Assembly (NCBI GenBank): GCA_030141605.1
Contig: JAQGDQ010000538.1
Coordinates: forward strand, 1-64,000
Length of the DNA stretch: 64,000 nucleotides
Direction of reading: 5' to 3'
Source of the DNA: Tubiluchus corallicola
Taxonomy: Eukaryota > Animalia > Priapulida
The translations under genes and the position numbers were made by a program. Of this stretch, positions 4,360 to 59,919 are shown one piece after another. Each line of letters opens with the position of its first letter. The first letter of the stretch is position 1. The notes below the pieces were generated by a model that was not told the origin of the DNA, did no database searches, and worked only from the letters and a program-made list of their open reading frames with translations.

Positions 4360-34964
<30,605 letters not shown>

Positions 34965-38025: not shown

Positions 38026-38073
38026 CCGTCTCTAGATGGCAATAAAACATCCGGTGCATTTTGCAAGATGGCG
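38026..38073 (+). promoter_or_regulatory. Putative EPT1 promoter: ETS site and YY1 motif overlapping the start codon
   Basis: CTAGATGGC (38032-38040), ACATCCGGT (38047-38055, reverse ETS ACCGGATGT), CAAGATGGCG (38064-38073, contains the ATG). Confidence 0.55.
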
Positions 38074-41000
38074 ATCAAATATTTAAATACTCTTCAGCTA
38101 GAAGGATTTGATAGCTATAAAGTAAGTTGTTTACGTAAATTAAGCTGTACAAGTCGTTTAAATTCTGCCATATGGCTGTTTGATTGTTTCCCATAACATT
38201 CTGAGATAATTAGTTAAAATCTTAGGCTCTCACTCACTATATTGCAGTCACTTGTCAAGCTGCCAGTGCCAAGCCCATGACGGGTCATGAGTGATTTTTA
38301 GTGGCTCGTAGTGAACTGATCTTACTCTTTCCGAAGCTGAGTAACAATCACTCTAACTTTGATTGATTTGGTTTCTAACTTGATCTTAATTGTGACCTGC
38401 TTTTTATAAATAATCATGAAGCTGTACGTCGACATTCATCTAATACTAAGTAATAGCTTTTCTACACTATACTCTAGACTATGAGTATAGTATAGGATTT
38501 TATGATGATAATGATGAACTCGTGAAGCCATCTTATCCGAGGAGCAGTTTTTTGGTTGTAAAAAATGTGACCACAGTTTGCCAAAGTTGTCTAACAATAT
38601 TTTTGTTAATTACGTTTAAAGAAACGGATTATAAACTACTGTGACTTACCTTTTCATTTTGGTATGGACTTCAAATTCAAACCGATTTATCTTATATCAT
38701 AATCACGTTAAACTGTCAGTAACAAGCAGTTACGTAAAATGATTATGTGAATTTTGTGTAATAAAAAATAATTAAAATTACTTGAACTGATACTCAAGTT
38801 CATTGTTGACAACAAAGTCTCACATCTTCCTCAAGTTTTTCCCAATAATCTTATCTTAGTTTTACTTTGCAGTATAGCTGTGTTGACACCTCGCCACTGT
38901 CACAGTATGTGATGCATCCATTTTGGAACCAAGTGGTAAAGGTAAGCAGTTGTATGACAAGTTAATTTCTACAAAATTCTTTGGTGTGCTATTTTTAGCA
39001 TCTGAGGCTTATTACATCATTGCAATAGAGCAGATTGAAATCCATTTCAGATATAAATCACTCCAAAGTTGCACATTTCTAGCAATATATGGGTCCTTTG
39101 CTGCTTGTTCCTACTCATTATTTTTATGTCTTAACTGTTAAGTCAAATCAAAAATAAATATGTAAATTGTAATATGAACTCAAGTGCTCTATGTGTCCAT
39201 CATTTTCATTGCAACCTAGGTGAAGGCAGTTTTTCTAATATAGTTTCTCACTTCTTTAAGGAGTATTTTGTTCCGGTGCTCAGCAATTTTTGTCTTTAGT
39301 TCCTTTGCACCAAATAGCTCTGTGCAACTGTTGTATGTACCGTTGCCTCTCTTTAAAGAATCCAGAGTTCGTAGTCCAGACGTATTATAATGTCATACTG
39401 TGAAATTTCGACTTTGTAGGACACTGCTAATATTATTGTAATTTAAATTTCGGTACATTTTTCTGTGCCTCTCAATATAAATGTTATATTATATATTATA
39501 GGTACATATAATACTATGTATACTATATAAGTGGAATATTATATACATATAATATATCAGTCGTAACTGTACCAATATACTAATAGCGATATAGAAGAAA
39601 TTTAGTTTTTAAACCTAATTAAATATCATTTATTTTTCAGATATTACCACTATGGTTGGCTCCAAATGTTATGACTTTTACTGGGTTTATTTTACTAGTC
39701 ATCAATTTTCTATTGTTATCGTACTTCGATTATAGCTTCTATGCAAGTTCCGACGACAAACCTCAATTCCCGCCAGTGCCTCACTGGGTTTGGTTGTTTT
39801 GTGCTTTTAGCAACTTTATGGCTCATACATTAGGTGAGTGATTAAAAGCTTATTAGTAGTTATAGAATTGGACAGTTGGTACTAGGGATGTTCAGGATAG
39901 CGATATGTATCGATAATTATAGGCATAACTAGAGCAATGACACCAGAAAATTCTTCTAAGGCCAAGATATTAAAAAAATGAGAAATGATAAGCCTTTATC
40001 TCATTAGTGAATTAATTTGTTAAAAAATTGTTGATAATGTGCCAACGTTTTGAAAATCTGCTTGTACAAGGGGCGGTTGTTCCTCTATTAGCTACACCAC
40101 TGCAGCAATCACAGAAATGAACTAAAACATATAAGGCATCATTAGCAATAATGATGCATTGCCTTCAAAAATTTATTTGTTTAGTCTGAGCAGTTTTCTA
40201 AATTAAGAATTAAAGTCAGTAAAATTTAACACTTTCCCAAACTCCCATTCTAATTGTTTCCAAAAATGACTTTTTCTTGACTCCCAGTTCCAAGTCCACA
40301 GCTCTCAGTATGATTTAACCTTCTTACTAAAGTGACTAATCAGATCTATTGATATATCAGATCTGTTATTTGCATTTAAGCATTCTGTACAAATACATGT
40401 TTGCCTACAATCACACAACTTTCAGCTTGCGCTTTATGCTGCTGATTCAGAAAAATAAATCTAAAGGCCAGGAAATATTTTATTCTGGAGATTGTCAGAG
40501 GGCATATTACTTTTATTTAGTTGTTGTCTAAGACTAAGGCTAAGGCTATTTTTCATTGTTAGTTCTAGAAAGGAACATATTTGAGGGTTTCGAAGTTTCA
40601 GAAAAAAGATAGTCATATTTCTCATTGTGTAGCAAATGACTTTATTATAAATATTACTTATATAATGTGCTATATAAATAACTGCCTTTTTGAATGCTTT
40701 GTTTGAACCCAATATCAGTATTGTTTTAGAGAATTATTTGAGCTTGTGATTGCAGATGGCGCTGATGGAAAACAGGCCAGACGCACACAATCTAGTAGTG
40801 CACTAGGAGAACTTTTTGACCATGGACTAGACAGCTGGGCCACGTTCTTTCTACCAGTAGCCATGTATTCAGTATTTGGTAGACTCGATTATGGGATGAA
40901 TCCGTTAAGGTTAGTGTCGGCGTTTGTTCTTTAATGCACCACATACAGCTAATTTGTAATTATGTGTAGGAAAGTTTCCCTTTCTTAAATTGTTTTGTTA

Positions 41001-44000
41001 GCTTATCGCTTCAGAAAAAAATTTCAGTATATTTATTGTTTTTCTAAAATAACTAAACATTACAAAATCAACCTTTTCGTAAAAATCGTAAATTCTGTTT
41101 TCTACTTGCTCTGCATTTACTTTATGTCATTACTTGATTGTTAAAATGTTGTTTAACCAATTTTCACTAGTATGTGTCTAATTTCACTTTTGTTTAATCT
41201 TAGCGGTATGAAGATTTAATAAAAGCAAGTACAGATAAGACAAGACGTTATAATATATACAGTTTTACGAGACTTATTTTTATTAATTTTTCAAAACACC
41301 AAACTCCATACCTTCTATGGAATATGAGGTTGTTTTAAATACATTTAAAACAGTTTAGGATGCAAAGTGCACTGTAGTTGTTCAGTTAATATATGATACA
41401 TTATGAACATGGGGTCCAGTACTCCGAAACATCAATAAATATAATGTCTTGTAATTGTATATTAATGAAGATAATACTGCAAAAAATTCTAAAAAAATAG
41501 TGCCAATGTTTTTGTGTGACAAGAATTTATGCAACAAGTTCCTGTTCACTCAGAGGGCATCCTCATTTACTCAAATTTCTTACTTGTAAGCAACAAAATA
41601 CTTGTTGAACCATTTTAGGTAAATGATTTAAGTTAAAGGGGAAGAAAAGGCAATTATAAGGTTCTAATCATCTAATGTTTCAAAAAATTTCTATACAGTT
41701 ATATTATTTAGCATTATGCTTACCTGTTTGAAAGAGATGTTTAACTTGAAAAGAAAATTCTTAATAATTTAAAATGTTCATGACAACTAGTAAAACATCA
41801 CTGGCTCACTATCCTGGTGTGCCCCTAAAAACATTATCAGCTAACCAGAGGATATATTATTAATTTTATTAAAGTGATAAAGTAATTTATACTTTTGCTT
41901 AGACAATGAAGTGTACACTACAAGTGCTCTGAATATTTTTTTGAACTTTACACAGTTTTATCTAAATTTCTTACCCAGGAACTGTTGGTTAAAATAGCTA
42001 CTCCTAAGTGTCAGCACCTGAGTTAAAATTTCAAGTTTGAAACAGTATTGCTGCTAATACAAGCCTTGTATGTAGTAAGACAGCATGTACATGACACAAA
42101 GTTTCAAAAGGAAGAATTTAAGTTGTATGTAATAATTCTTTTTCCTTGTTTTTTTAATGCATGAGATATTTGTTTCCTGTTTTGACACTATAAAAACTAA
42201 CACCTTTAAGAAACTAGGAAAAAACTACAAAATATGTGCCAGATAAAGTTGTACATTTGTGGTAATTGGTGATTATCTTGTTTTAGGGTGTATTTTATCA
42301 TATGGGCAGTGCAGCTAACATTCATAGTTTCTCATTGGGAAAAATACCTAACAAAAGTACTTTTTCTTCCATGGGGCTATGATATTAGTCAAGTTGTAAG
42401 TATTTTTTGCTCTGTAAATGTATACATGATATATGTAATAAAATATGTTCTGGACAGTACATTTCGTTTGACAAATTTTTTATATTGTGTTTGCTAGACA
42501 GTTGTGCATATAATGTAGTATAAGTAATCATATGTGTATGTATAAGTAGTCAGTGATTTTGTGCACTTGGTTACAAAATATCTGCAAGCACGGTTAAAAA
42601 CTGGATGAGTGACCATTGAGAAAAAGATTTTGCAGCTGTTAGTTATAAAATATCTGCAAGCTCAAACATTCAGAAAAATATTTTTGGGTTGTTTCATTCG
42701 TCATGTTGTGTTTGGTTTTTTTTTATTTGAGGAAACATGTATACACATCTAGAAGTGGATAAGATACCTCTGCGGTTATGTGTCTAATCTTTGAGGATTA
42801 TTACTAATAATGAACAAAGTTTGCTGTTCTACTACACTATGGACATTACATTCGCAAAGCAGTACTGTTGGCTGTCTGTAAACTTTATAAAAAATGCTTT
42901 CCAGAAAGTTGAAAGAACGTGAGTTAGGGTCAGAAGTATTATCGCAAATGTTGCTAAGACATATTAATGGAAGACGAAATAGTTGAGTGGCTAGATGGAC
43001 GTACCATTTGTTTAACATAGTTTCAATTAAGTTAACAAGAATACATAATAACGCTGCAGTCCTGTCTTCAGTCCACTATTGACTTGCCACAATGTCACTT
43101 CACAGAAATGAGACCTGATATTTTTAACTACATTGACCGTCATCATTTTGATGTTTTTCATTTTTTAGGTGATGACTGGTGTCTACTTGATAACATTTAT
43201 AAAAGGATACTCTTTATGGAAAGTCAGTATTCATGTTGGCGCAGTAGAACTTACAATTCCATTAGTAGCTGAATGTGGAGTTTATGGTAAGTTGGCAGTT
43301 CAATTTTATCTCTGTTGTAGAAAATAGGAAAGAAATATTTTCTCAGTAAAGGCAAAAAGCATACCTGTCTTGAGTGTCAGATTCAGGCTACATGAAATCG
43401 GAAAATAATCGGAGATCAGAAGTTATTTGCTTGTTAAATAAGAAATTGCTTATCTGCCCTAAATGTAAAGCAGTTACATTAACTTTTTTCTAACGAACAC
43501 AAAGCTATAAGACTATGTTCACAGGCTAGGTGGCTGACAACAGCAAATTTCAAATGAGCTCAATATCCATGGTGGTGTTTCTTTTTTCTTTTCTTTTTGA
43601 AATAGCGGTTCATGTGTGGTGAATACTGTGACATTTTTAGTTCGTTTTTGGGTTGATGCCAGCAGATAGTTTACACTTAGGATATCCAATGATGTTTGAT
43701 CGCTTATAAATATTAACAGTTAGCAGTATTAGCACTAACTTGTTATTAATTACTACTTTCATCAGCATTGCATCAGTTATACAGTTTTTAAATGTATAAC
43801 ATAAGAACATGAAGCAAGTGGCTGTTTATTCGTTTGACGATGACGATATATATTATTCATTCATTAATATTAAATTTTATATGTAAATTCCTACATAAAT
43901 ATTTTCTAATAAATAAATTAATTAATCCGGTGTGCCATACGTTTGTCCTGTGAAATGAAATTATAAGTTGTAATGCAAATTTTTTTTGTATTTTTGTGTT

Positions 44001-47000
44001 TTGCAGTTTTCTCACTTGGTCTTAGTTTGGGCCAGAGTGCATGGAATATACGAAAGTAAGTTTATTATTAGTTACAATACGTGGACATTTGAGATTTTAA
44101 GACTTTGGGGCAACTATACTACAGTGAAAAGTAAATTTTCGGTTTTCGTTTTGGTTTTGTGTCACTTGCAGCTGACAGCAGTGGTCATCACATATTGGGC
44201 AAACACCTACCCCGTCTATACTTATGTACAAGTCGAATTTTCGGGTCAACTTACAATATGTATTTGGAGATGTTGCTAAAGAGTCGTCTACAATACGAAT
44301 ATGGGAAGAAATAATCCTGCATTATACCCTGGACTGAATGAACACTCATACTGTGATGCTTCACAAAATTAACAAATATTACTGTAATTTATTTTAATGT
44401 ATGTGAAATTAAGTTAAAATTTATATATTACTGGTAAATAAACTAGCGACGGAGCAGTCGATCAAAACATGAAAATCCCCAATGTTGTACAAGTGCTGCT
44501 GCCTGTCGGCTTCTGCAGGAAGTTTTACATTGGCCTTGTATATGCGTGTTTTGTTGACAAAATATCGATTACCAGCATACACGCGTATATAAAACACAGC
44601 TACGCAGAGGTATTGATTTTAGTAAATTGATTTATTACTCAGCCATTGTTGACATCATTTACTCTGGAAGATCTTAATATTTTATGGTCGACTTGTACAC
44701 AGCTAATATATAAAATGATGCAATTATTGGTCTTAAAATGCACATCGACTTGTACATAAGGTCGACTTGTAGACACATATATATGGTATTTTTCTATTGG
44801 ACAGACGCGTTTTCTTCGTCACTCGAATTGCACCTTGCAAAAAGTGCACATTTCAAGCTAGAAGCTGATGTAAATTATTTACTACACTCCTGTGCTTATC
44901 ATTTCACTGCTTATTAAAAGTAAAATCATTTGCTGTTTTATGTAAACTTTCTTGTGAAGTTATCTATAACCTAACATTTCCATATGAAAAATTTCGATCA
45001 AATTTAATGAACGAACAGTAAGAGCTTTTCAATGTAACTAAAATTGATTATTTTGTGGTGTTATTTTATCTCTAATTAAAGCAATTGCTGTACTTCATTA
45101 CTTGTACTCTTCTTCTAGGTCATATAGAGATAACACGGGCAAAATGCTTGGTGCATATGAGGCAATTGTTCCTCTTATTCCTGTAACTAGTTTGTTTATA
45201 ATTAGCGTTGTGTGGGCTTTTCTATCACCAAGCAACATCATAGACTCCGACCCGCGGATATTTTTCTTTTTAACAGGAACTGTTTTTTCTAATATTACGG
45301 TAAGTCAGTTACAGAATCTCAGTTGAAATTTTGATCAGTTTATGCCAGTGTAAAATGTATTTGGAATAAAGATTTTAACATGTATAAATTATATGTTCAC
45401 GTTTGATAATTAAATATCATGCGCTTTCTTGATTAATTGAAATTCTGCGAACAGGCCAAAAGCTTGTCATTCTGAAATTTTACGATTGGAGTTCATGCAT
45501 TATTGTGATATGATGATGTGAGTGAATGATATGAATTCTAGCAAGAGCCAAGGCACAGGCACAGTGTGAGTGATACGTTTCTATTTGTCTATGGTTTTTC
45601 TAGTGTTTTTAAGGGTGTGAATACATTTTGCTCAGACTGCTGAATTTAAAATTGTTTGTTTGACCTGATGCTCTTCTACAGCAGCTCAGTACAGATTCAA
45701 GATATCTTTGAAGCAAGTGCGATATCTTTAAGGAGAAATTAGCATATACAAGCCTTAATATTAGTTCACTATAGTTCATTTTGAGATAGTAAACACAGTT
45801 TTTTGCCTTTTTATTAAGGTGCTTTTGTGTAGCACTTGTTTTTTTTTGTATGTGAAATCAGTTTCTAAAAGCGTGATGTTTTAAAACGTTTTTAACTTTA
45901 ATAGGGGCTGCACTTGGCTTTTTGAAACTTTTACAATTTGGCTGCAACTTTTTGATATTTTTTGTGTATTATATTATAGATATATTATTAATAAAATACT
46001 ATTTTGTGTATGGTACAATAATATAGAAAACTTTCATATGGTCAAAAGAAAGCTAACCCATAACCTTGATAGATCAATTGTCTTGTTTAAGATTTACTGT
46101 GTAAAAAAGAGATTTTTTTAAATTATTACTGCATCCAGCAAAGATAAAATGATTTTTTTGCTTATTTAGTGTCGTCTAATAATAGCTCAGATGGCAAGCA
46201 CACGAGCAGAATTGTTCAACTGGTTGCTGATACCTCTAATCGGGTGCTTACTGGTGGTATTCTTTGTGCCAAGTTTAAGTCACTGGGAAAAACCCATACT
46301 CTATGCACTTATGGCATTTTGCACCCTGTGTCACATTCATTTTGGTGTAATTGTGGTAAGTGGTGCCAGCTTTAGCATAATGCATTGTGTTATAGAGATT
46401 TTTGTCTTCTCTGTGCTATAGCCTGCCCAATGTCAGCAGAAATGTTTATTTTGTTTTCATGTACAAATTGTTAAGCCTGCATCACCAGGTACTCTCACAA
46501 GTTTTGATCAGATTCTTAAAAAACTTCTTATGTAGCATGTTTTTTTAACTTTTTGCAATTTAATAAGAAGAATTGGGTAAAGAAATCCTATTTGAAGCGA
46601 GTTCAAACATTGTTGCATCTGAGATAGGTGCATCATTTTTTGGCTGCTAGCAGACTATCATCCAACACTCATGCAAAAAATGCAACTTTGTACTTAAGTT
46701 CAGTGTTGAAGGGTTTACATCTTCTGGGAAAATGAGAAACGGTAACAAAAAATCTTCATCTATCAAATTGTTTCTCCCCTTTAAAGCTTCTCCTAGATGT
46801 ATTACAGAAATTGTGATTCTCAATAGAGTTAGACATTTGCGTGTACAAGTTAGCTTGCATGTGATTAGCAATAGCAGCATATTTTAGTCATTGGAAGACA
46901 GTAACTTGAACTAGGTTTGGACATCATCATTTCTGACTCTTGGAAAAAGATTACGGTTATAAATATTATATCTAAGCAGTAATTTAGCAAAACTAAGAGA

Positions 47001-47486
47001 TGTAACCCTCAATATATTTTGTAATTTGAGGGTAAATTTTGTATATCGACTTAGTAAAAAGCTTTTTGACCTCAGTGGAGTAGGCCTATTTAGTTTTCGT
47101 GAGTATAAACAATGCCATGACAGGCACTATGTTTGTGCTTCTCATTCACGCAAGCAACAAACAGGCTTCTAATCTGAAAATTGTCTAGTTTCATGACTTT
47201 GTTTATGTCCATAAGAATTGTAAAATAGCAAACTGCACAGGTTATATTTTTATTTCCAAACTAAACCTAAATCCAGTTTCCAAAAACTAGTTAATCCTTT
47301 GCAATGAAACAGACTTTCAAATTTGCATTTGTCTTTTGACAACTACAACAAAGTGGATGCTGACAGTGTTTTGTAAACAGTTGCCAACCAGAGTTAATTT
47401 CATGTTTTTTTTTTCATTTCCAGGTAAGACAAATGGCTCAGCACTTAGGAATCAATGTATTCACACTTAAAAAAAAAGAAGATTGA
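38068..47486 (+). CDS. SELENOI: Ethanolaminephosphotransferase 1 / selenoprotein I orthologue (CDP-alcohol phosphotransferase), 10 coding exons; 391 aa to the TGA, 399 aa if TGA 47484-47486 is recoded (next stop TAA 47508-47510)
   Basis: Exons: 38068-38121, 38873-38941, 39641-39833, 40756-40909, 42287-42395, 43169-43286, 44007-44055, 45119-45299, 46170-46355, 47424-47486(47510). Motifs: [37 protein letters not shown], catalytic [49 protein letters not shown] (EPT1-type rather than CEPT1/CHPT1), [35 protein letters not shown]. Confidence 0.95.
44212..44786. mobile_element. Tc1/mariner-type (CCGT-ended, Tc2-like) MITE remnant
   Basis: CCGTCTATACTTATGTACAAGTCGA versus TCGACTTGTAGACACATATATATGG (19/25 inverted), TA on the right, three subterminal TCGACTTGTA repeats. 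Confidence 0.6.
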
Positions 47487-47630
47487 CAATTACTAGACAA
47501 TGCATGTTAATCTCAGGTGGGGAACAATGCGTTACCATGGAAACGCACTCATCTTGCTTTTGAGTAAACTGCGAAATGTTTGCCAGTTTCTGTGGTAACA
47601 TTTATTGCACCCAGTATTGCCATGAGAACA
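47484..47630 (+). promoter_or_regulatory. Candidate stop-codon recoding element: TGA-CAATTA plus downstream stem-loop
   Basis: TGA CAA TTA at 47484-47492; 14-bp helix 47531-47544 / 47586-47599 (two G-U pairs) with further inner and outer pairings. Confidence 0.6.
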
Positions 47631-50600
47631 AAATTCCTACAATGATCTATTCCAAATTTAAAAGTTATTTGATTTTTAGATTTTTCTTCGTTGGAATTAG
47701 ATTTTCAAAGTGATAAATTGGTACTATTGGGTGCAACGTCACTTCTGTCTATCAATGGGCAAAATGCCTTGTCTTTCACAACCTCAACCACGTTTAACTG
47801 TCAGCAAAATTTTTATTTGACTTTTATGGTTGTGTCAGGTCCAAAGTCCAGTTCTGCTCTTTTCTGTGCTTCTTACATGTCCAGAATAGATGTCAGTAAC
47901 GTTGCTTTGCTTTATGGTGCTAAATTTGCATTCTTTGATTGCAGAATTGTAATCATTTCATTCGCTCCTCATGTTTAATCGGGTTAAAAGGAAATCTGTG
48001 TGTTTAGTGCAATTGTGTGACAGTTTCTTAGCACTAAATGAAGATCTTGATGTAATGGTAAACAAAGACTAATAATGCTAACTTTCTGACATGCTGTTGC
48101 AGTCTTCATAACGGTAATAATGTTCCATAGTGTCATTATTTGCTTTGAATTATTGAATGTAATTATAACATGTGTTGTTTGATGCCATGTTAAAATGTTT
48201 CTTGTTTTTCAAATTTGGCTTTCGCAGTAGTAGTAAGTATGATAAGTGTTGTTTGCAACTTTTTACCACTTGTTGTTATCAGCTGTCTATCGATTTCTGT
48301 TTTCACTTTTTGCACTCTGACATCAGCATCCATTTGAACAAATATTGGCTAGTCATAAAGAAACCAAAGAACTTTTCTCAATATGTGAGTTTCGCACTCT
48401 TTACTATGATTTGTTATGAATTGTTGAGTGAGCTTATACATGTTTCTTATGTACTTCTTTCCATAAACTTGTTTTTTTTTTGGAAATTTGTTTGCTTTCG
48501 TTGTGGTTAGTGTACGTATTACTTTTTGCTCTGTTGTATTACAGTGTTTGTTGTTTCTGGCATCTTTCAAATTGGTATCCAGCATCAGTGTTGTTCGTAC
48601 TTTTCTTCTTCCATTGATGGTTGAGTTTGTTTAGATTCTGATAGATAGTTGTGGTACATTGTTGTTCCTTGGGATAATCATGCATTGTCTGAGACCGTAC
48701 AGCATGTAGATAATTGTGTTTTGCATTGTTTCCAACAACAATGCCAATGTTGATTGATAAGCTACCCATAAAATATGTACAAGTTCTAGAAATGGAGAGG
48801 TTTAGCAATATTAGTAATGTGGGTGTAATTGATTGATAATGAGTGCAAAATACTAAACAGTAGTAGAAATTACATTATTTTATATGCTCTGACTTAGCTG
48901 TATTATTATGGTATTTCTCAACTTTGCCACAAGTTAAAAATATAATTTTTGGAAACAATAGCTAAGTTATACTGTATTCTTTGCCTGTAATCTAGACACT
49001 TTACATACTAAGATTTTAGCTGCACATTCAGATAATTATTGTGCAACAACGAACTCTTCAGCCGTTTAAATATTTACCTATTGCTACAGAGCTATAGAAA
49101 TTCTTCAATTTTGTTAAACTTATAAGGTCTTAAAATGGATATAAATTAGGAAAATTAGAAGAAAATTTTTGTGTATTTTTTGTGATGTTCTAAAATATGA
49201 TTACCCGCACTAACAAAGACTTATAAAGATTAACCATGTATATTGCAGCAACTATGAATTACTAATTATGTATCATGTACATTCCGCAGAAAACGGTATG
49301 CTTAATCATTTGATGTGCATTGCTTTGTTTTTGGAAATGTGCATGTTGATGCTCATGCTGTGAAATATTCTTACTTTAGTAAATGTTTTGTACAAACATT
49401 GTACATTACAATGTACTTAATTATGTGAATTAGGTTACTTACCTATGTGGTTAGGTGCTTGCTGAGTTGTGAAATTTGACTGTATCATTAGCGCAGAACA
49501 TAACGAAATGGTTTAATTTAAACAGACTGAAACAGTTTTATGTTAGATAGTCATTATTAATGCCATTATTTTATTTTGGGATGAATAAGAAAATATCAAA
49601 CAATATGGAGAATTGTTTCTGGAAATATGCTAGGCAAAATTGTCTCTAAATCAGTTTTGATGTAAGCCTTGAATGTAGTCTTGTAGAGCAGCTCTCATTT
49701 TGCATATTTCGTAATTTGCAGTTTAATTTGCGCAGACAAAATCTGATACTTGCACAAGAATGAATGAAAGGAAGTGATCCTTGTGACTTTATAAACCACC
49801 AAAGCGATTATTATCTGTGAGTCAGTTATAAGTGCTGATTGTAAAAATGTCGATCCTTTGATTATTCTATTTTTATTGATATAATAACTTGTTATTAGAG
49901 AGAATCTGATGTTCTTACAAGTATGAATGGAATGATGTGTTATTCACGAATATATGCTGTGTTCCCAAAGCAGTGTATTATCAGTTGTAAAAATGCCCAT
50001 TTATTGCATTTTGATTGATTTTATTCACATTTGTATTTTTTGTGTTGAAACAGTATTAGCCGTAATAATTGTCTTTGTAAACTTGCATTAATTTGTCCTT
50101 TCTGTTATGCATATGACTTAAGTTATAAAAATTTGTAATGTTTTTGTTTTGAAAGTCATAGATAATTGATTTACTTATCTTGGCGGTAGATATCTGGTGC
50201 TTTTAATTAACTACACATTAGTTTTTAAGATGTATAGTGTACTTCGCTGTTTTAGCATTACTCTAATCAAAATTTATTGCATTTGTTTACTTTTTGGTAG
50301 AATCTGTAAATTTTGGTTAAAAGTTTCAGAAAAATTTGTTGTATAGTGCTAGTTTTCAACATAAGCATACAAGAATCGGATAAAGACTTGTGTTTATAAT
50401 GTTGCTTATAAACACACACACGCACGCGCGCACCATACATATATGCTTGTAATAATAACACATAAAGTGACAATTCTATGTACATGTATAAGCATTATCT
50501 CCTACTTTGCATTTTGAATTTTACAAGTTTTGAAAATAATCTTATACACGAAAAGCTAAGTTAAGAACCTTGCAGTGCTGTGCACAACAGCTGTTGTTAA

Positions 50601-51945
50601 AGTACAATCAACTGTGCTGTGAAATACAGTTATATTTATTTGAATGCAATAATAATTGTTACATTATCAATTAGTAAGCCTCTGAATCAACATTTGATAA
50701 TTCCACGATCGTAGCAGTAACAAACTTCTTCATACTACGCATAAATTTTTAATATTTGTGAACCGTTAAATAAAACTTTGTTGCCTCGCATATCATAAAT
50801 TGTTCTTGGCTAAGTAAGATGATGTAGTTAAGCAAAATGAACTCAGTTCATTAACCTAATAGACAACTTCACATTGTAATATTTTTGATCATGCTTTATG
50901 AACTGCATTGATAGTCTGGTGTGATTTTATAGCTTATTAGAGAGTCATGCTAATTTGAATGTTTTGACTGTGATTTGCAATCAGAATTCATGTTCGATTT
51001 TATTATTTAGCAGTAGTGAGATAACATTGCACACTGCACATGTCAGCAAATTGCTGTACCCGATCTTGTGGGGTACACATTTTCATACCGTGTAACAGCT
51101 TGTCTGTCAGATACTCTGTTGTTCTTTAAATTGGCACTTTAGATCATTGTCTGTGTTCGGAATGTGATCTTGCTTTCGTAGAAGCTGTAGATGAGGGACT
51201 ATATATCGTATGTTTTATATGTACTTCTCCCAAAAGTTTACTGATGAGTTTGCATTTTCAATAAGGCTCGAGTTTTGTATAATATTATGTTGTGTTGCAC
51301 TATGCTGTGCTATGTCATGATGTCATGCCATGTTGTTTGTTATGCTAGTTTATGTGATGCAGAATATGCTGTGTGGACTGCCAAGTTTCTTAACAGTGTG
51401 GTGCATACCACTCATGCTTCTTAGCTGATTGGAGTTGGTTTGTAATTTGATAGCAATCAAAAAAACACTAGCATATCTTTTAGGCAAGCTGCTCTAATAC
51501 ATCTTTTCGTTTCATATCATGATGATAATGCAGCAAATGTAGCAGGCTTTAGTTGAGTTAACTTTTGCAATATTTGGGAAGTTTTGTAGTGATTGTGAAA
51601 ATAAAACATGTTGCACTTTTCTGTCACACTTAATGAGCATTGTTAATTTACCATTATTGTCTTGCTTTTATAATTGTTCTAGTGATTTATGGTTATTTGC
51701 ATGTAATTACGATTGTAGTGACAGTAGAAAATGTTGTGTAGTCAATTAATAATAATATGTACATAATTTACTGTTTCAAAATGATGTGTAATGTGTACAT
51801 GTAATCAGTAGCTCTGTACATAATGTTTTGTAGAAATTTTAAGCATTGCTATATGTGTTTCACTGTGGACATCGTAAAACAAGCAAGTGCTTGTGTATAA
51901 TTTAAAAACATTTCATATGCAGATGTACTTAATAATAAATTAAAT

Positions 51946-51967
51946 TATATATATATATATATATATA
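51946..51967. repeat. (TA)n microsatellite near the EPT1/DEPTOR convergence, flanked by AATAAA motifs
   Basis: tatatatatatatatatatata with AATAAA at about 51934 and 51976. Another candidate EPT1 polyA signal lies at about 51600. Confidence 0.75.
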
Positions 51968-53479
51968 ATAAGGAAATAAATAATTTTTTATACTAAAAGT
52001 GTGTTTGTTTAGCTGTTTCATATTAGAGTTGGTTAAAAAAGGTTCTTGTCTAGTTCCCAATCTTTCACAATACAGTATAAAACTGAACATTTCAAAATCA
52101 TTCGTGTTTGATATCATACGAGTGTTTTTAACTGTGTGATTGTGGTCAACTTGTAATATTCCCCGGAGTACAAAAAAATGAGTAACTAAAATGTTTAGTC
52201 ATTACTGTTATCTTTATAATCTATTTGTAGAAAAACTAGAACAACTACCCTGTTCACAACCCACATTTTGACCTGTCATTTAAATAAAATCTGAGAGGAC
52301 TTTGATCATAAAACATTGTAATATCTATAAATTATTTAGAATCTAATACCTATATAACTAATTTCCTATAAAAATGGTATAGCATTAATGGCAATGTATC
52401 AGTTCAGTACAGAAAGACCTATTATGCCATGGCTTTACCATCACTAGTAGACAAACTAAAGTCGCAGTCGTGTCACCATTGCCAAGTAACTGCACATTTG
52501 AAAACCTGCAAATTATTTAATATTAAAACATCTGTGGCTTGTCTAGCAACTGGCACCTAAACAATAACATCCTGTAGGCTTTTTGTTATTTTTACCAAAT
52601 CCTGCTAACTTGGCTTTGCATTGAACCCATGCACTCTATCAGTGAATTTAATAAAGCTCTAGTTTCAGGCAACAGATGATGCCACATCCATGCAAACAAA
52701 ATTAATAATTTCAAAAATTCAATAATTGTACATTATTTACTTGTCACACAATTGGTCACTCATATATCTAAAAGTAGTTAAACTGAGAGTGCATTGCACA
52801 AAGGCTTCTGAATGTAATTTCCATAGAAGATTTACAAAAAGGATAATTCTCATGTTGAATATATACACACACTATTTACACACATAAAAAACTAATTTGC
52901 TGCAGGTCTCTTTAACAGCAGTTCAAATTTAAGTTGTCAAACCGAACCACTACCAAAACGCTTACATCTTACAGGACATTCCCAAGTTTATGACTTCCAT
53001 GATCAATTCTGTTAAATATACAACTCCATCTAGTGGATCAATAATTATTATTAATTAATAAATCAATATTGCACTTTTAAGTGAGCTTTTTTATGTAAAT
53101 CAACCCTGATTATACATACAGAATAACACAATTTGTTACTTACTTCTTTTGCTGATGTAGTAAATACGAAACAAACTTGACAAAATTTGTTACAAAATAA
53201 ATTTATCAAACAAAATCTTCAATTGGTGTTTACCAAAATTCATTATCGACGTAACATCAAAGCTCCAGGCCCAAAGCTTTCCTCAACAAATCATGCCAAA
53301 ACATCTGCTGTACTTAACAAAGGTCTAGTGTAGCCGCTCATCCCTGTATAACACAAAAATGCACCATAACGCGTGGCAAATTTTCATGTCCACCCTACTG
53401 CACACTTTCAGGGCTAAGTGTATGGCCTGTCATTTTTAACAGTTCAATGTCAAACACAGTCTACTAAACTCACTAATGA

Positions 53480-56400
53480 TCAACTGATAACATTGACAAC
53501 AGTCTTGTTTTTGCAATATACCATAATGGTTAAATTCACAATGCCCATTGGACTGTTGATAATCCGCTTAGCCACCACTTGGTGAGGCTGACGAAGCACA
53601 TTCTCTCCATTCACTTCACACAGGTATTGTCGAATCTGTAAGTAAATAGAATTTAATATCAAAGAAGTTACCAAAGATCTGCAAATATTATGCACACATT
53701 CATCAATAACCTAACACTTTGATTAATCTTTACAGTGTATTATAGAGTGGTAATTTTTTCAAAATTAATGACAATTTTTTCTGAATTTAGTAAAGTAGGA
53801 ATCAGAAAAAACAATCCTTGAATAAACTGTCTAAGCAATTTTACTTTTCCATTAAAAAATCGGGCAAACAATACCACAAAACAACTCAAATGTCAACATA
53901 CCCTGAGACCAGCTTCATAAGCTGGACCTTTAGGATCAACAGTCTGGACAAACGTTGGACCGTTTCCGCGGACTACGAATCCATATCCGACGGAATCACT
54001 GACAACCCGCAAACTCTTTTTTACATACGGTGAATTTGGATTTTCCAGTTCTTTAGCGCTTACTTGTCTAACAACTACAACAGTAGAATATTAATGCAAC
54101 ATTATTATTATTATTATTATTACTATTACTAGATTTATGAACTAGTAAGAAAATTGGAAATAAACTAACTTAGGCTAAAGGATAATGATTGAATCCAAAC
54201 AAATGTCCTTGCGATTTTTATAATTAACAAGTTGCAACCATGAATAACGAATTATTATTAAGTTTATAAATTATTATTAGACCAACAGTGATTAATTATT
54301 AATAATGGGTTATTATTATTTTGCTAAAAGCGTACCAGAATGAGGTAAAACTGCCACCCTATCTGGCTTATTAGACAGAGAAGAACGCTGATGTTCTACG
54401 TCATCAGCATCCTCTCCACTGTCAATGGTTTCGTTGTCATCACTATCATAGGAGCCATTACGGTTATAGTCACCCGACTCGTCAAATGACATACATCTTG
54501 ACTTGTCTAAAAAATGAAATATTCATTAATTTCAAAATAAATTTTATTACTTCAATAAATTAAATTGCAAACTTAAAAAACAAATATCGTAAAACTAAAT
54601 CGAAAGTATTAATGGACGATTAATGATACATTATTACAGAGATCTAATGCTATCAATTCTCCAGGTATATTTATGGAGTTATTGATACAATATGCAATTT
54701 TCTCAACAACAATTGAATGATTTGTGGCAAATTGCATGTCATACGAATCATCAGTCTCCGGTGGTCCCATGAGGTGTTTATTTTTTAATTCGAGACGTCC
54801 AGGAGGCCTTTAAAAATGGGCGTTTTTCACAAACTTATAAAATTGAGGTCCGAAAAGAACAGGTCCTGTGAAAGACAGGATGCTATATATCATTGAAAAA
54901 AGCTTTCAACATAGGGTGTAATAGATATAATTTAGTTTCCTGGAAGATTCATGAGCTACCAACCTGTCACAGTAACTGTTTTCCGGGAACCATCATTCCA
55001 AATTGTTTCAAAAATGCGCAAATGGGATGAGATGGGTCTAAAGTGTAAATGTTTCTTTTAGATACACATTCACTTAAAGAAATGGGAGGAGGGTGTAATT
55101 CAGAATTCTTTTTCAATCTCCCTATAACTGCGTGTTTTTGAAACAGCAACTTGTCTTTCACGACTGTTCCACGACATGGTAGTATACTTTACTTTCATAG
55201 TATATTTTCATTTTAATTTTATTCTCCTTGTAATAGTGTTATTATTGTTGGATCACTTTTGTTAATTTAAATTATAGTTCTGATCACGGTAGAATTAAGT
55301 GCCAATTTTCATTCAAGATTTCTTTTGAATGAGAGTAATAAGTAACTCGTATATGTATACTTACGTATGATGCCTAGACCTATCTATACTCTTTACATAT
55401 ATCCCAAGTAATACACAGTCTTTATAAATTAACTACCTCACATTGCATAGAGTACTGCAGTAACAAGCCGGCTGGCATGCCAACTTGCAAAGCCAATTTT
55501 TTTCCGGGAAAAGTTTTCCTGTTAATTATTGTATACCTCCACCTCAATCACCTGCTTCACAACATTAACAAGTATTTCTGTTGCAAGTAAATTAAAAGCA
55601 ATGTAATTAGTTATAAGAATAAGCCTTTTTAAAGTTTCACTGTATACAAGCACAGTTGCTATACGTCAAAGGTTAAGTGAACCAAGCAATATGTCTTAAC
55701 TACAACTGTCATGTGGCAGGTGGGTAAAGCAAAGTCGTCTGCTGCATCAGTTCAATTGATTTACGTGGAGTTTACTTAATTATTCGTTAAGGACCTTGCT
55801 TGGGAACAAGAAAAAATGCTCGATAAGCTTCTAGCTAGCATTAAAACTGTTACTATTACAATAGCATGGGGTGCGAGTTGTTGTCAAGTGTACACAAATG
55901 CATTCTCTGGTTCTCTTAACCTCTGGCCTTTTTACAATCATCATCAATCACTGGAACTGTGAAAAAGCTTATTCTACTCTTCCGGATATATATATTAATA
56001 TTTTTACTTTTCCACTGTAACCTCTTAGATATAGCAGCCACTTGCCTTATTTCAGATGGGTTTCTTATTCATACTGTAAGAGCAGAATTAATACAATAAC
56101 CAGTCCATATTTACACCTCTGGAAAATTGATTGAGTGAAAGTCAGCTAAAGCATTACTAATATAATCACCTCCATGATACGGCATGTATGGAAAGTTACT
56201 AAGGGAAATCGCAGAGATCTTACGCGTGACGTCGACGCTGCGATCAGGAGACACAATAGATGAAATTCGTCGATCGGTCTTTCTGTCTGGACTATGATCT
56301 GAAAACCGATGAAATGAAATAACAACATCGTTAAAATCATTAGTGAGAATATGTGAAAAACTCTTGCCTTTGTCACTTTTAATTATACAATAATTAAATT

Positions 56401-58066
56401 AATCAAATGTAATAAATTAAATCACAGCTGCGACATTATTAATATTTTTTACTGTGAAATTTCGTATTTCGTGTATCATTGTGTATTTCATGGCTGTACA
56501 ACAAAAGCGGCATTAACTTATCCTGACACTGAAAATCCTATCTGCAAGAATCATTAGTAAACTAGTAGAGCTTCATCTAACTTCACTTCAAACAGTAGTT
56601 TAAACATTATTTGATAAAACAAAACATGGGCCGAAAACAATAAAGCTGATTAGTGAAACTCATTTGAAACAGCAAATATAATTTTGTAAATTATAACTTT
56701 TTGTAAATTATTATCCACTTCAGCACATTATAAAGTGCATGATTATCTTATAACTATTATACACTATAACTAGGAAAGAATCAAATATAGACTTGCAAAA
56801 ATTGTAACAAAACTGCATCAATACACTATTAATAGTATTATGTGCTATAGTTATTAGTTAGAGAAAAAATTTTAAATATAGTTAAAAAAATTTAAAATAT
56901 AGTTAAACTGCAAAACTTCTAGTTACAAATATCAGCATTTTATTTTGCATCGTGAACGTATATATATCACAGCCAAGGAAAATGCACAAAAGTGTACCGT
57001 ATGTGGTTACAGCTTACTTTTAATGAACACCATCTTATACTGTTATTAGCTTAGTGTAACGTTTTCTAAACTAAGTTAATTTAGCAAAACATTTGTATTT
57101 TTGCATATTCTACTAAAATTTAGCTCGGCATAGAGTTCAAGTTCAAACTGCATGTGTTATAAAAATAGTACAATATTAAATTGTGTCAAAATAGAGGCTA
57201 AAATGGTTGTAGAAAGAAAACAAGAAAACAAAATGTTCCATTTTTTGTTAAAACTTGCAAAGTACTGTACATACTAACCATCATCACTAGAACTGAACAG
57301 CAATCCACCTAGAGACATCTGTGAAATTTTACGAATCTTTGACGTGGTCGTTTCCGCGGCTGGCTTGTCACCAGACTCCATGTCTTGTAGTGAGAATCCG
57401 CCACGAACGGCGTATCTCCCCAGTATATCAGAGTATTTCACAGGTTTCTTAAAGTTAACCGAGAACTGATATAATAGTTCCTCATCTTTAAAATGCTTTT
57501 CATGAGCAACTGAAAGGTAAAACATTTTAACAATAATAAAAAATACAACAATTGCTAGCAGAACAAAAACTATATTATTACTTTTCTATACTATAAATTC
57601 TTACATGGCACTAATAGAAGAGAAAATGGAATAACAAAATAAAATGTAGTAATGTAATTTCTGTTTGTATTTTTCATTACAGGTTAGAAATTTTTCCTGT
57701 AATGGACAGCACAACAAAAAAAAAACAATTATTTTTTGAAAAACAACAATGAAATTTTATTTGTTAACTTGATCAGATTTCGAAATAAACTTTCATATGA
57801 ACTGCATATCTCACATTTCCGTGCATTTAATGAATTTAATTCTGTAACCCCACTATCTGTAGGGTTAAGTCACTACTGGCTACTTACCATGATGGATCAC
57901 ATTGTTGACCAACAATTCCCTGCAGTCTTTCAATGCCTGCTGTCGTGTCAAAGCCAAGTGTTCAGATAGGATCCAATCTAGTAACCCACGTCCGGTGAAG
58001 GAATAATCGTAGCTAAGACCGTCCTCTTGTCGTAGCTTCAATACTCTATTGGGCTCGGTGTGTAGC
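53480..58066 (-). CDS. DEPTOR: DEP domain-containing mTOR-interacting protein (DEPTOR) orthologue, 5'-partial: second DEP domain, Ser-rich linker, PDZ domain
   Basis: Minus-strand exons with consistent phases: 58066-57888, 57509-57279, 56298-56170, 54506-54336, 54074-53902, 53635-53480 (TGA). DEP: LHTEPNRVLKLRQEDGLSYDYSFTGRGLLDW…VIHHVAHEKHFKDEELLYQFSVNF. PDZ with DEPTOR-type lead-in: RQVSAKELENPNSPYVKKSLRVVSDSVGYGFVVRGNGPTFVQTVDPKGPAYEAGLRIRQYLCEVNGENVL. No exon for the first DEP domain was found in 58067-64000. Confidence 0.9.
54101..54130. repeat. (ATT)n microsatellite
   Basis: attattattattattattattactattact. Confidence 0.85.
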
Positions 58067-59919
58067 CTGAAAAAACGTATGTAGTTAGCATGTGTATGGT
58101 TATCAACCAGACGCACAGATGAAACAGGTTTTCGCCTGAAGGTACGGGGGATATAAACTGCTTTATGGCTCCTTCAAATGTAGAAAAAACAGCAATTAAA
58201 GTCAGAAACTAGAACAAGATTTGGCCGCGTGCCAAAAATGCTGAACGATGTTCGAAGAAATCATAACATGGGAAGAGCACTGCAATGTTAATAAAACAAA
58301 TGTGACGACCTTGACTTGGATGCGTTTGTGATACCAGTGAAGTAGTAAATTTCAAAACAAGAAAAAACATTAAACTTAACGCAGGCTAAATTTAGCAAAC
58401 ATTTAATTTTAATTCATATTATTTTGTGTAAATGAAAAAATACTATCATTAGCCTAGACTTAAGATAGATAAAATTAACATATTTTAATATTTTTGTTTA
58501 AAACTCACTTATTGTATAGCTTGAGACCTTTGAAAAAGACCCGCAAGTCATTGAAGTTGGCGAATGTTGCATCATCTTTTCGAAAGCGGTAGAAATTACA
58601 GTCGTCCAGAAACCTGATTTGGTCACATACTACAAAATTTACAAAACTGTAATAAAAATATTCATATCTTTATGAATACATAAGACTTTAGAAATACTTT
58701 TAACCTTTCAACTCAAGAAATTCCTTCAAATGAAAAAAAATAAATAGTTCCATTTCCACAACGCGCCAATTGGTAATTGCACAAAGACAAGTATGACAAA
58801 TATCACTGCCTGTCACTTATCTAAACCTTAAACGGGTCAAGTAGTGTTTCACTATCAAGCATAACAGCACACCGTCACTGTGCGCTAATAATAATAAGCC
58901 AACAAAAATGCAATGTAAAAAACTTGTTAACTCACATTCACACAAAGTCTGCACACTGGAAAATGTTCCACTAACCAAGCCTCAAGCCAAACATTGTTTA
59001 TCAGAGATACTTAACATAAGATTAAATTCAGCAAGTCTTCGAGGAAACGGGTTGGTCACAAATAAGCGAGATATTTGCTTCATATCAAACTTCACGTGTT
59101 AGCGAACGTCAGCATTATAAATTTTACTTCCACGCCCAAATCCGGCTCGGCGAAAAAAACGTACACTGCAAAATTTCAACTCGACTTTGACGAAAGCTAT
59201 TCATGTGACCAAGGTGACAGGTCAATTCACCTGCCAAGGTCAAACAGGTAAATTAAAGTCGGAATTTATATATCATGAACAACCTGTCTGCACGTAAAAA
59301 TACAGCACGCGATTGAACAGGTGAAGGTTTTCAGAAAGCAAACCTGAAAATAACACGTGTCAATTGACCTTAGCCCAACTGTGCTTTGCTTAGCAAAAAT
59401 TTGACGTCAAAATATGCGCTGACTTGGTAACTTGTTATCGCAAATAAACCAGACAAGAAATTTTTGTTTACAAGCGGCTATGTAACGTCTACACGAGTTC
59501 ATTGGAGGTACTTAATCTAATTAAAAAATTAACAGGAACAAAAAGTCAAGTTGTTATCAAAAGTGAGTGAATGAATGAGTAAATGACTGAATTAAGAAAT
59601 GAACGAACGAGCGAATGAACGATGAATTAAAATAACACGAACGTTACAAATTGCGAACAATGTTTAAACGTTTTTTCCAAGTTACATCAGGATCAATTAT
59701 ATAATCATAATTACAAATGTGCTTCATATGTAGGTTGTCTACACTTTATATTAATTTTTTAAACAAGCACAGCAAAATGTTTGAAAATCGGACACATTGG
59801 TGTAGATGAATGAAAAAACCTTTGGCATTCTTTTGGCCAGAAAATCTGAGAACTACTGTACTGGTGGGCTTCTCTATTTTCGCTACCTTCTTCAAAGCAC
59901 TTCTGCTAATGATCAACAC

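Follow-up and report, generated by a model that had tools for sequence, protein, structure and literature searches.

Stop-codon readthrough stimulated by RNA structure has been described in alphaviruses and in Drosophila kelch, where a stem of 10 to 14 bp follows the stop codon after a spacer of 8 to 9 nt and encloses a loop of variable length (PMC3159437). In a luteovirus, a distal readthrough element lies 700 to 750 nt away (PMC3159437). Abundant readthrough is described only in Pancrustacea in the study of insect genes by Jungreis et al., the main text of which does not contain the string "priapul" (PMC5100048). For the selenoprotein SELENOI, a 2012 survey called the function of the tail unknown and listed no Cys forms (PMC3316567), and according to a 2026 survey no homologue outside vertebrates includes the selenocysteine (Sec) position (PMC13134290).

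Here we describe the EPT1/SELENOI gene of the priapulid Tubiluchus corallicola, found in a stretch of 64,000 nt (GenBank assembly GCA_030141605.1, contig JAQGDQ010000538.1, positions 1 to 64,000), which we call the window and to which all coordinates refer. The gene has a UGA in a leaky-type context, followed by 8 bases and then by a predicted 12-bp stem with a partner 1.17 kb away. We consider it probable that EPT1 undergoes SECIS-independent programmed readthrough at this UGA and that the event is conserved across Ecdysozoa; from sequence comparison, the arrangement is real, conserved and likely a functional readthrough cassette. It would be a very old cellular readthrough event outside Pancrustacea. 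The long-range stem predicted at the EPT1 stop is new here. A literature search, mostly at title level and with few subscription journals, returned no title on readthrough in invertebrate EPT1, and neither the enzyme name nor the fly gene names tried turned up in the 687 rows of supplement text searched for the Jungreis et al. study (PMC5100048).

The EPT1 gene of Tubiluchus corallicola

Translation of the joined exons yielded an EPT1/SELENOI gene of ten GT-AG exons on the plus strand (38068-47510), with an open frame of 391 codons followed by TGA, seven further codons and TAA. Coding exon 1 (38068-38121) contains the ATG and matches the N-terminus of Priapulus caudatus EPT1. It is followed by exon 2 (38873-38941), exon 3 (39641-39833), exon 4 with the CDP-alcohol phosphotransferase motif (40756-40909), exon 5 (42287-42395), exon 6 (43169-43286), exon 7 (44007-44055), exon 8 (45119-45299), exon 9 (46170-46355) and the coding part of the last exon, including the TGA and the tail (47424-47510), which has a polypyrimidine-CAG acceptor upstream and is in phase 0. 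The joins of exons 4-5, 7-8 and 8-9 are each present as one record in the RNA-like run X6.

The closest protein found was EPT1 of P. caudatus (72% identity), which ends FTIRKKED, and in a quick tree built from 68 rows the two grouped together with a support of 100. By this identity and by the tree the gene is an EPT1 orthologue, and it carries an in-frame UGA at the Sec position. Exon 4 alone scored 20.9 bits against PF01066, just under the cut-off of 22, and a protein search with exon 3 alone gave no match among longer proteins. No SELENOI was present among solved structure chains, where the matches were CEPT1, CHPT1 and CPT1 only.

A run of A just upstream of the TGA is nine long (47469-47477), as originally given, and the reading frame across it is confirmed by P. 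caudatus EPT1, which ends in the same frame. The last exon is also covered by DNA contigs of run X2 (45058-48983, gap-free) and run X1 (45841-48983, with two gaps whose places are not given), both of which may come from the window's own sample and are not necessarily independent. A homopolymer at this place and confirming reads of possibly the same origin would be what an assembly slip, or a merely chance context, needs; such an explanation is nevertheless already contradicted by the shared frame of P. caudatus and by a tail and stem conserved in distant arthropods (see below), and we regard its probability as negligible.

Several further features were observed around the gene. The last exon begins CAG|GTAAGA (47421-47429), so that the spliced exon 9 junction resembles a strong 5' splice site; re-splicing there could conceivably take out the stop region. 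High-copy repeats occupy intron 4 (~41650-41900, depth about 200x single-copy) and intron 7 (~44300-44800, about 500x). A Rho-kinase-like gene with kinase and C1 domains (~16900-34300, plus strand) ends about 3.8 kb upstream of EPT1, and a DEP-domain gene (~54300-58200, minus strand) is convergent with it. The GC skew changes sign near 52 kb, consistent with a meeting point of two long 3' UTRs.

The UGA lies one residue off the vertebrate Sec codon

The protein-coding end reads KKED-TGA-CAATTA, with the TGA at 47484-47486, and the tail codons CAA TTA CTA GAC AAT GCA TGT lead to a TAA at 47508-47510. The TGA follows F-x-L at +5 residues in the window and at +6 in all 52 named vertebrate proteins truncated at the UGA, a count made without unnamed records, without four entries running past the UGA (P0282, P0295, P0298, P0303) and without the alternative ending P0364. 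The four longer entries continue with Leu. The original prediction, using a human SELENOI sequence, had aligned the TGA with Sec to within a one-residue gap; both the position and the register were borne out by the vertebrate sequences. The in-frame extension of eight codons that it described, X-Q-L-L-D-N-A-C to the TAA, is also present, with the 391-codon frame upstream open.

We surveyed named proteins for a D/E end located 5 to 7 residues after F-x-[ILV]. Such an end was found in 45 of 49 pancrustaceans and myriapods, in all six non-mite chelicerates (two of them ticks), in Priapulus and in the 52 of 52 vertebrate entries stopping at the Sec codon. It was found in 2 of 25 lophotrochozoans and in none of five ambulacrarians, seven mites and two sponges, and the named matches included no amphioxus or tunicate sequence. 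The ends of P. caudatus, chelicerates, annelids and vertebrates were compared as proteins only. At this protein level, chelicerate-type ends (FTMKKPSSD) are near-identical to the vertebrate FSLKKPSSD (P0175, P0179, P0173, P0328, P0352 set), and two unnamed proteins outside chelicerates and vertebrates likewise end in SD.

The stop codon context had been interpreted as leaky on account of TGA-CAATTA, with CAATTA as a CARYYA readthrough hexamer. What stood was the leaky type starting with C, which is kept in orthologues; the hexamer itself is not conserved (orthologues have CTA or CTG). Moreover, CAR-YYA is described with UAG, and UGA-CUA is the usual type for UGA (PMC3159437). TGA followed by CARYYA occurs at 4 of the 1288 plus-strand TGAs in the window; this rarity and the conservation of the tail in arthropods speak for more than a chance context. 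When leaky contexts are taken as UGA-CUA/CGG or CAR-YYA, they include TGA-CAATTA of the window and, in relatives, TGA-CT(A/G/T).

The stop codon and a short tail are conserved in arthropods

A scan of metagenome contigs with alignment of the C-terminus gave 33 EPT1 loci, of which L028, L032 and L033, being without the last exon, were dropped. The remaining 30 had a readable end, and 12 of them end D/E-TGA-CT(A/G/T). Eleven of these 12 carry a matching tail, LLAD[SND][AT](C); the mayfly-like locus L027 has TGA-CTT and a different tail. The arthropod tails read LLADSTC, LLADSAC, LLADDAC, LLADSA, LLADNA or LLADDA, and that of the window QLLDNAC, which together with the second stop TAA occupies 47487-47510. 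In the tree of EPT1 loci, which is a quick tree and not a full search, the matching-tail loci were placed with Daphnia (L001, L003, L013), with springtails (L002, L004, L010, L014) and with ants, next to Temnothorax with support 98 (L023, L024), while L012 is loosely crustacean. L025 is a near-duplicate of the ant loci and absent from the tree; the three ant loci are near-duplicates of each other, and the matching-tail arthropod loci represent about four lineages.

Nucleotide identity between the window and the 11 loci was 0.56-0.72 over the 18 bases 3' of the TGA, compared with 0.29-0.56 across the 45 coding bases upstream of it and 0.23-0.40 farther along (an unaligned comparison, in which L012 is one codon out of register upstream). 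Across the 11 rows, the tail codons vary synonymously (CTA/CTG, TTA/CTT, AGT/AGC, AAC/AAT, GCA/GCT/GCC, TGC/TGT), with the TTA to CTT change found in ants. Of the seven columns for each codon position, 4 vary at the first, 3 at the second and 6 at the third position. The six rows that keep the Cys all have their second stop, a TAA or TAG, at one and the same codon. Synonymous variants together with a fixed second stop may point to a second reading frame under coding constraint, over only seven codons, four of them inside the stem described below.

The remaining 18 of the 30 loci have other, longer or different ends. With regard to the original prediction, for which freely varying stop codons in orthologues would have counted as refutation, the TGA is constant within the D/E-CT type (12/12) and the tail is kept in 11, while CAATTA varies and the other 18 loci end otherwise. 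An in-frame LL is present in the tail of 7 of 16 other-end loci (pooled shuffle p 0.0008; the rows are not independent), and the mite-like other-end locus L031 carries HLLADD. The other-end loci with in-frame LL give the impression that the tail became a constant part of the protein. Loci L005, L008, L009, L018 and L031 (a crustacean-like clade, likely copepods, plus mites) have no early stop, an in-frame LL and often acidic runs after it.

In five loci, L002 (922-924), L004, L010, L014 and L012, the Cys codon of the tail is a second TGA that lies within the helix. Sec can be indicated by a TGA in line with a Cys codon, but the downstream sequence of these five loci is not conserved and yielded no shared SECIS.

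The bases after the stop are complementary to a distant site in the inferred 3' UTR

The bases +9 to +20 after the TGA (47495-47506) are the exact complement of 48679-48690, located 1.17 kb downstream in the inferred 3' UTR, and form with it a predicted stem of 12 Watson-Crick pairs. No other exact complement of the 5' arm occurs on the plus strand of the window. Between the TGA and the stem lies an 8-nt spacer starting with CAATTA (47487-47494). In a fold of 1827 nt of the window, the helix had pair probabilities of 0.95-1.0 and the spacer was unpaired; a second stacked helix (47510-47517 with 48668-48675) was predicted after a 3x3 internal loop in the window only. The predicted 12 bp fall within the 10-14 bp about 8 nt after the stop by which such stems are recognized.

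A search for partners of the post-TGA bases gave strong results in three loci within 400 nt, and the partner in the window was found over 2000 nt. When the search was anchored at +10 to +21, a register picked after an exploratory unanchored scan, a partner with at least 11 of 12 pairs was present in 12 of 12 sequences compared. In the anchored helix test with 200 shuffles, no shuffle (0/200) equalled the window or 9 of 11 arthropod loci, and 4/200 did so for L012. The predicted helix was present in 10 of the 11 arthropod loci tested, the exception being the mayfly-like L027 with no helix in 469 available bases, and in none of 15 loci with other ends, for which the best result was 11/200. Control 12-mers, two upstream per locus and purine-rich, reached 8/200 at best. 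The helix test left out L025, L019 and L022, and L009 was too short for it. In the unanchored scan only 8 of 13 rows reached at most 1/40 shuffles: it was weak for L003, L012, L023 and L024, and the best site of L025 was not the helix.

The pairing is maintained through compensatory changes at +13 (A-U/G-C), +14 (A-U/G-C, even within springtails), +15 (U-A/C-G), +16 (G-C/A-U) and +18 (A-U/U-A/C-G). Across ten sequences, 118 of 120 pairs are kept between a sequence's own arms, and in a permutation test that took one sequence from each of five lineages only the true matching of arms reached the observed score (1/120; three choices of rows). Full-context folds cut 40 nt past the arm gave the helix in 10 of 10 sequences, starting at +8 to +10. 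A local hairpin adjoining the stop was considered as well and rejected (z of -1.25 to +0.94 in 11 of 11 sequences).

These folds also bear on the idea that the duplex guides A-to-I editing of the UGA to a Trp codon, for an exon pairing with a distant complementary site resembles an ADAR substrate. In the predicted fold of L004 the UGA is indeed included, a pairing absent from the window fold; yet the stop lies outside the conserved helix, which starts at +8 to +10, and the five intronless contigs have TGA at this place. We consider editing a highly improbable explanation.

A piece of run X6 covers 48474-48713, with 23 differences, and the region of the 3' arm is therefore likely transcribed; its DNA depth is single-copy. 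Run X6 contained no piece over the last exon and no RNA contig joining the last exon to the 3' arm. Between the gene and 50769 there is no AATAAA or ATTAAA, and the first AATAAA (50769-50774), a presumed poly(A) signal, lies 2.1 kb past the 3' arm. Loci L001-L004 and L012 are single-piece intronless matches holding both arms, for which reason the two arms likely share one transcript there. For the window species, we predict that both arms are on one mRNA and that the stem forms in the cell.

Partial extra copies of the arms were noted at 48723-48744, 47524 and 51637. The first of these is a predicted 8-bp hairpin (probability about 0.6-0.7) located 32 nt past the 3' arm, the strands of which could pair with the stem arms instead, a possible switch. 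In 8 of 11 arthropod loci (e.g., L001:1670-1680), but not in the window, the 3' arm is followed by a short CCTCG motif.

The stem overlaps tail codons 4-7, and part of the peptide conservation may therefore reflect RNA pairing. This overlap is what a different explanation builds on, namely that translation really ends at the UGA, the stem acts in mRNA control (by folding a long 3' UTR back to the stop against decay, for instance, or by protein binding) and the tail is conserved only through the pairing bases. The high nucleotide identity at those codons would be explained, and the UTR is probably longer than 3 kb, given the first AATAAA at 50769. Pairing does not account, however, for the codons outside the stem, which stay Leu (CTA/CTG, TTA/CTT), or for the second stop, a TAA or TAG of constant position that is largely unpaired in the window. 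With the TGA constant in all 12 loci of the D/E-CT type and no such helix in the 15 other-end loci, we consider a true stop unlikely.

No SECIS element was found downstream of EPT1

An Rfam search found no SECIS in 47400-54500 (7.1 kb after the gene) or in the 12 loci, and a relaxed SECIS pattern had no match in 5214 bases of the window in a scan run without a positive control. Eight hairpins from a first pattern scan, also run without a positive control, were rejected, as all were without the unpaired AA. A SECIS-like hairpin at 48638, which overlaps the 3' arm, was discarded too: it has no unpaired AA, is weak and has no counterpart at the arthropod arms. Weak pattern matches in 4 of 11 loci (L004, L012, L014, L023) have no common position.

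The ant loci keep the TGA, the tail and the stem. Hymenoptera are without Sec machinery and cannot make selenoproteins (PMC4561486), so the EPT1 cassette can persist without Sec, an argument that does not strictly exclude Sec in the priapulid. The window tail QLLDNAC is also unlike vertebrate tails (e.g., LEEEEKIG...), with which only the first Leu is shared, and in arthropods only. Given that the searches found no SECIS and that the tail has no homology to that of vertebrates, we do not file this EPT1 as a selenoprotein.

It could still be argued that priapulid EPT1 is an unrecognized selenoprotein with a missed SECIS, in which the stem acts as a helper and the terminal Cys as a redox partner. 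The UGA is within one residue of the vertebrate Sec codon and follows an Asp, stems beside Sec codons are known (SRE; PMC4561486), the pattern scans were run without a positive control and the end of the UTR is presumed. Yet neither the Rfam search (47400-54500; 12 loci) nor the relaxed pattern (5214 bases) gave a hit, the eight first-scan hairpins all lacked the unpaired AA, and ants keep the cassette and its Cys while springtails lose the Cys. We therefore hold a Sec form to be quite improbable. Of the two branches of the original prediction, a Sec form or SECIS-independent readthrough, the evidence from the TGA, its C-context, the tail, the covarying stem and the ants favors readthrough, and the Sec branch is left without a SECIS.

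Discussion

In our preferred reading, SECIS-independent readthrough, some ribosomes would insert an ordinary amino acid instead of selenocysteine at the UGA and thereby add a tail of seven residues. Near-cognate tRNAs at UGA are those for Trp, Cys or Arg. By analogy with known readthrough sites, a stem 7 to 9 bases past the stop may slow termination, such that a near-cognate tRNA is accepted.

The purpose of the tail may lie in sorting, which is our best guess. A C-terminal di-lysine (KKXX) is a COPI-type sorting motif. The short form ends KKED (47472-47483), which fits both KKXX and KXD/E and could act as a COPI-type ER/Golgi retrieval or retention signal; KXD/E confers Golgi retention through COPI (PMC4642860). 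The C-terminus of EPT1 is probably on the cytosolic side, judging from the ten helices of CEPT1 (PMC10156783). Readthrough would then bury KKED and, in the most tentative step of the model, might expose a dileucine motif (E-D-X-Q-L-L) and a terminal Cys, so that a fraction of the enzyme would change location. The KKED end is present in the window and in Priapulus; of the 49 named pancrustaceans and myriapods, 47 end in D/E, but the lysine varies. The sorting model is a loose one because the KXD/E lysine is not conserved in arthropods (ends such as RAD and HSE) and because the spacing from the acidic residue to LL varies.

The original prediction further suggested that readthrough at this codon could be the ancestral state from which the vertebrate Sec extension arose. 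This is plausible and unproven: the D/E end is common to ecdysozoans and vertebrates, but it was found in only 2 of 25 lophotrochozoans and 0 of 5 ambulacrarians. As the sampled molluscs, annelids and ambulacrarians are mostly without a matching end, the site may or may not share its ancestry with the vertebrate Sec codon. We weighed three histories, by judgement and not by computation. Possibly, a D/E-UGA-Leu readthrough site was already present in EPT1 of the ecdysozoan-vertebrate ancestor and vertebrates later added a SECIS; ecdysozoans may, in the same tentative reading, have kept a selenium-free switch with a kilobase-range stem. A Sec-first history, with a later loss of the SECIS in ecdysozoans like that seen for SPS1, appears less likely to us. 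Readthrough-first and Sec-first both require losses, owing to the gap of the D/E end in lophotrochozoans and ambulacrarians. It is just as possible as readthrough-first that the two recoded ends arose apart at an already short terminus.

If readthrough came first, SELENOI would have become a selenoprotein by capturing an older readthrough site, and the Sec might serve tail control more than catalysis. A recoding site at the Sec codon in priapulids and arthropods would offer a concrete route for selenoprotein gain or decay by plain readthrough. Additionally, a stimulatory stem with its partner more than 1 kb away in the UTR would be missed by local-window searches; here, the stem arms are mapped to the base.

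By sequence tests, the EPT1 site is a putative structure-stimulated readthrough site of the kind found in alphavirus nsP3/4 and Drosophila kelch (Firth et al. 2011, PMC3159437). It shares with them the UGA, the leaky-type context, the 8-9 nt spacer, the stem of 10-14 bp, a long variable loop and compensatory changes. In EPT1 the loop measures 171-1170 nt, compared with 101-268 nt for the stems described in PMC3159437. Unlike in those systems, the 3' arm is located in untranslated sequence, the extension has no more than 6-7 residues and the range spans from priapulid to ant. With the abundant insect readthrough of Jungreis et al. (2016, PMC5100048), the site has in common the preference for TGA-C and a short second frame that appears conserved. 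Vertebrate SELENOI (PMC3316567, PMC13134290) is the orthologous enzyme and similarly has an in-frame UGA after D/E at a near-equal distance from F-x-L, with Leu after the recoded codon in vertebrates and arthropods. EPT1 described here differs from it by the lack of a detected SECIS, by a different tail sequence and by its presence in ants without Sec. Among known cases of non-Sec readthrough at a Sec position, insect SPS1-UGA comes closest (Mariotti et al. 2015, PMC4561486): there, a UGA at the Sec position is kept without SECIS in Hymenoptera and is likewise accompanied by a leaky hexamer and RNA structure. SPS1-UGA has an internal UGA and a local clover structure and stems from duplication of a Sec gene, from Sec to non-Sec (PMC4561486), whereas the EPT1 site lies near the C-terminus with a distant partner, and the direction of change may be the reverse.
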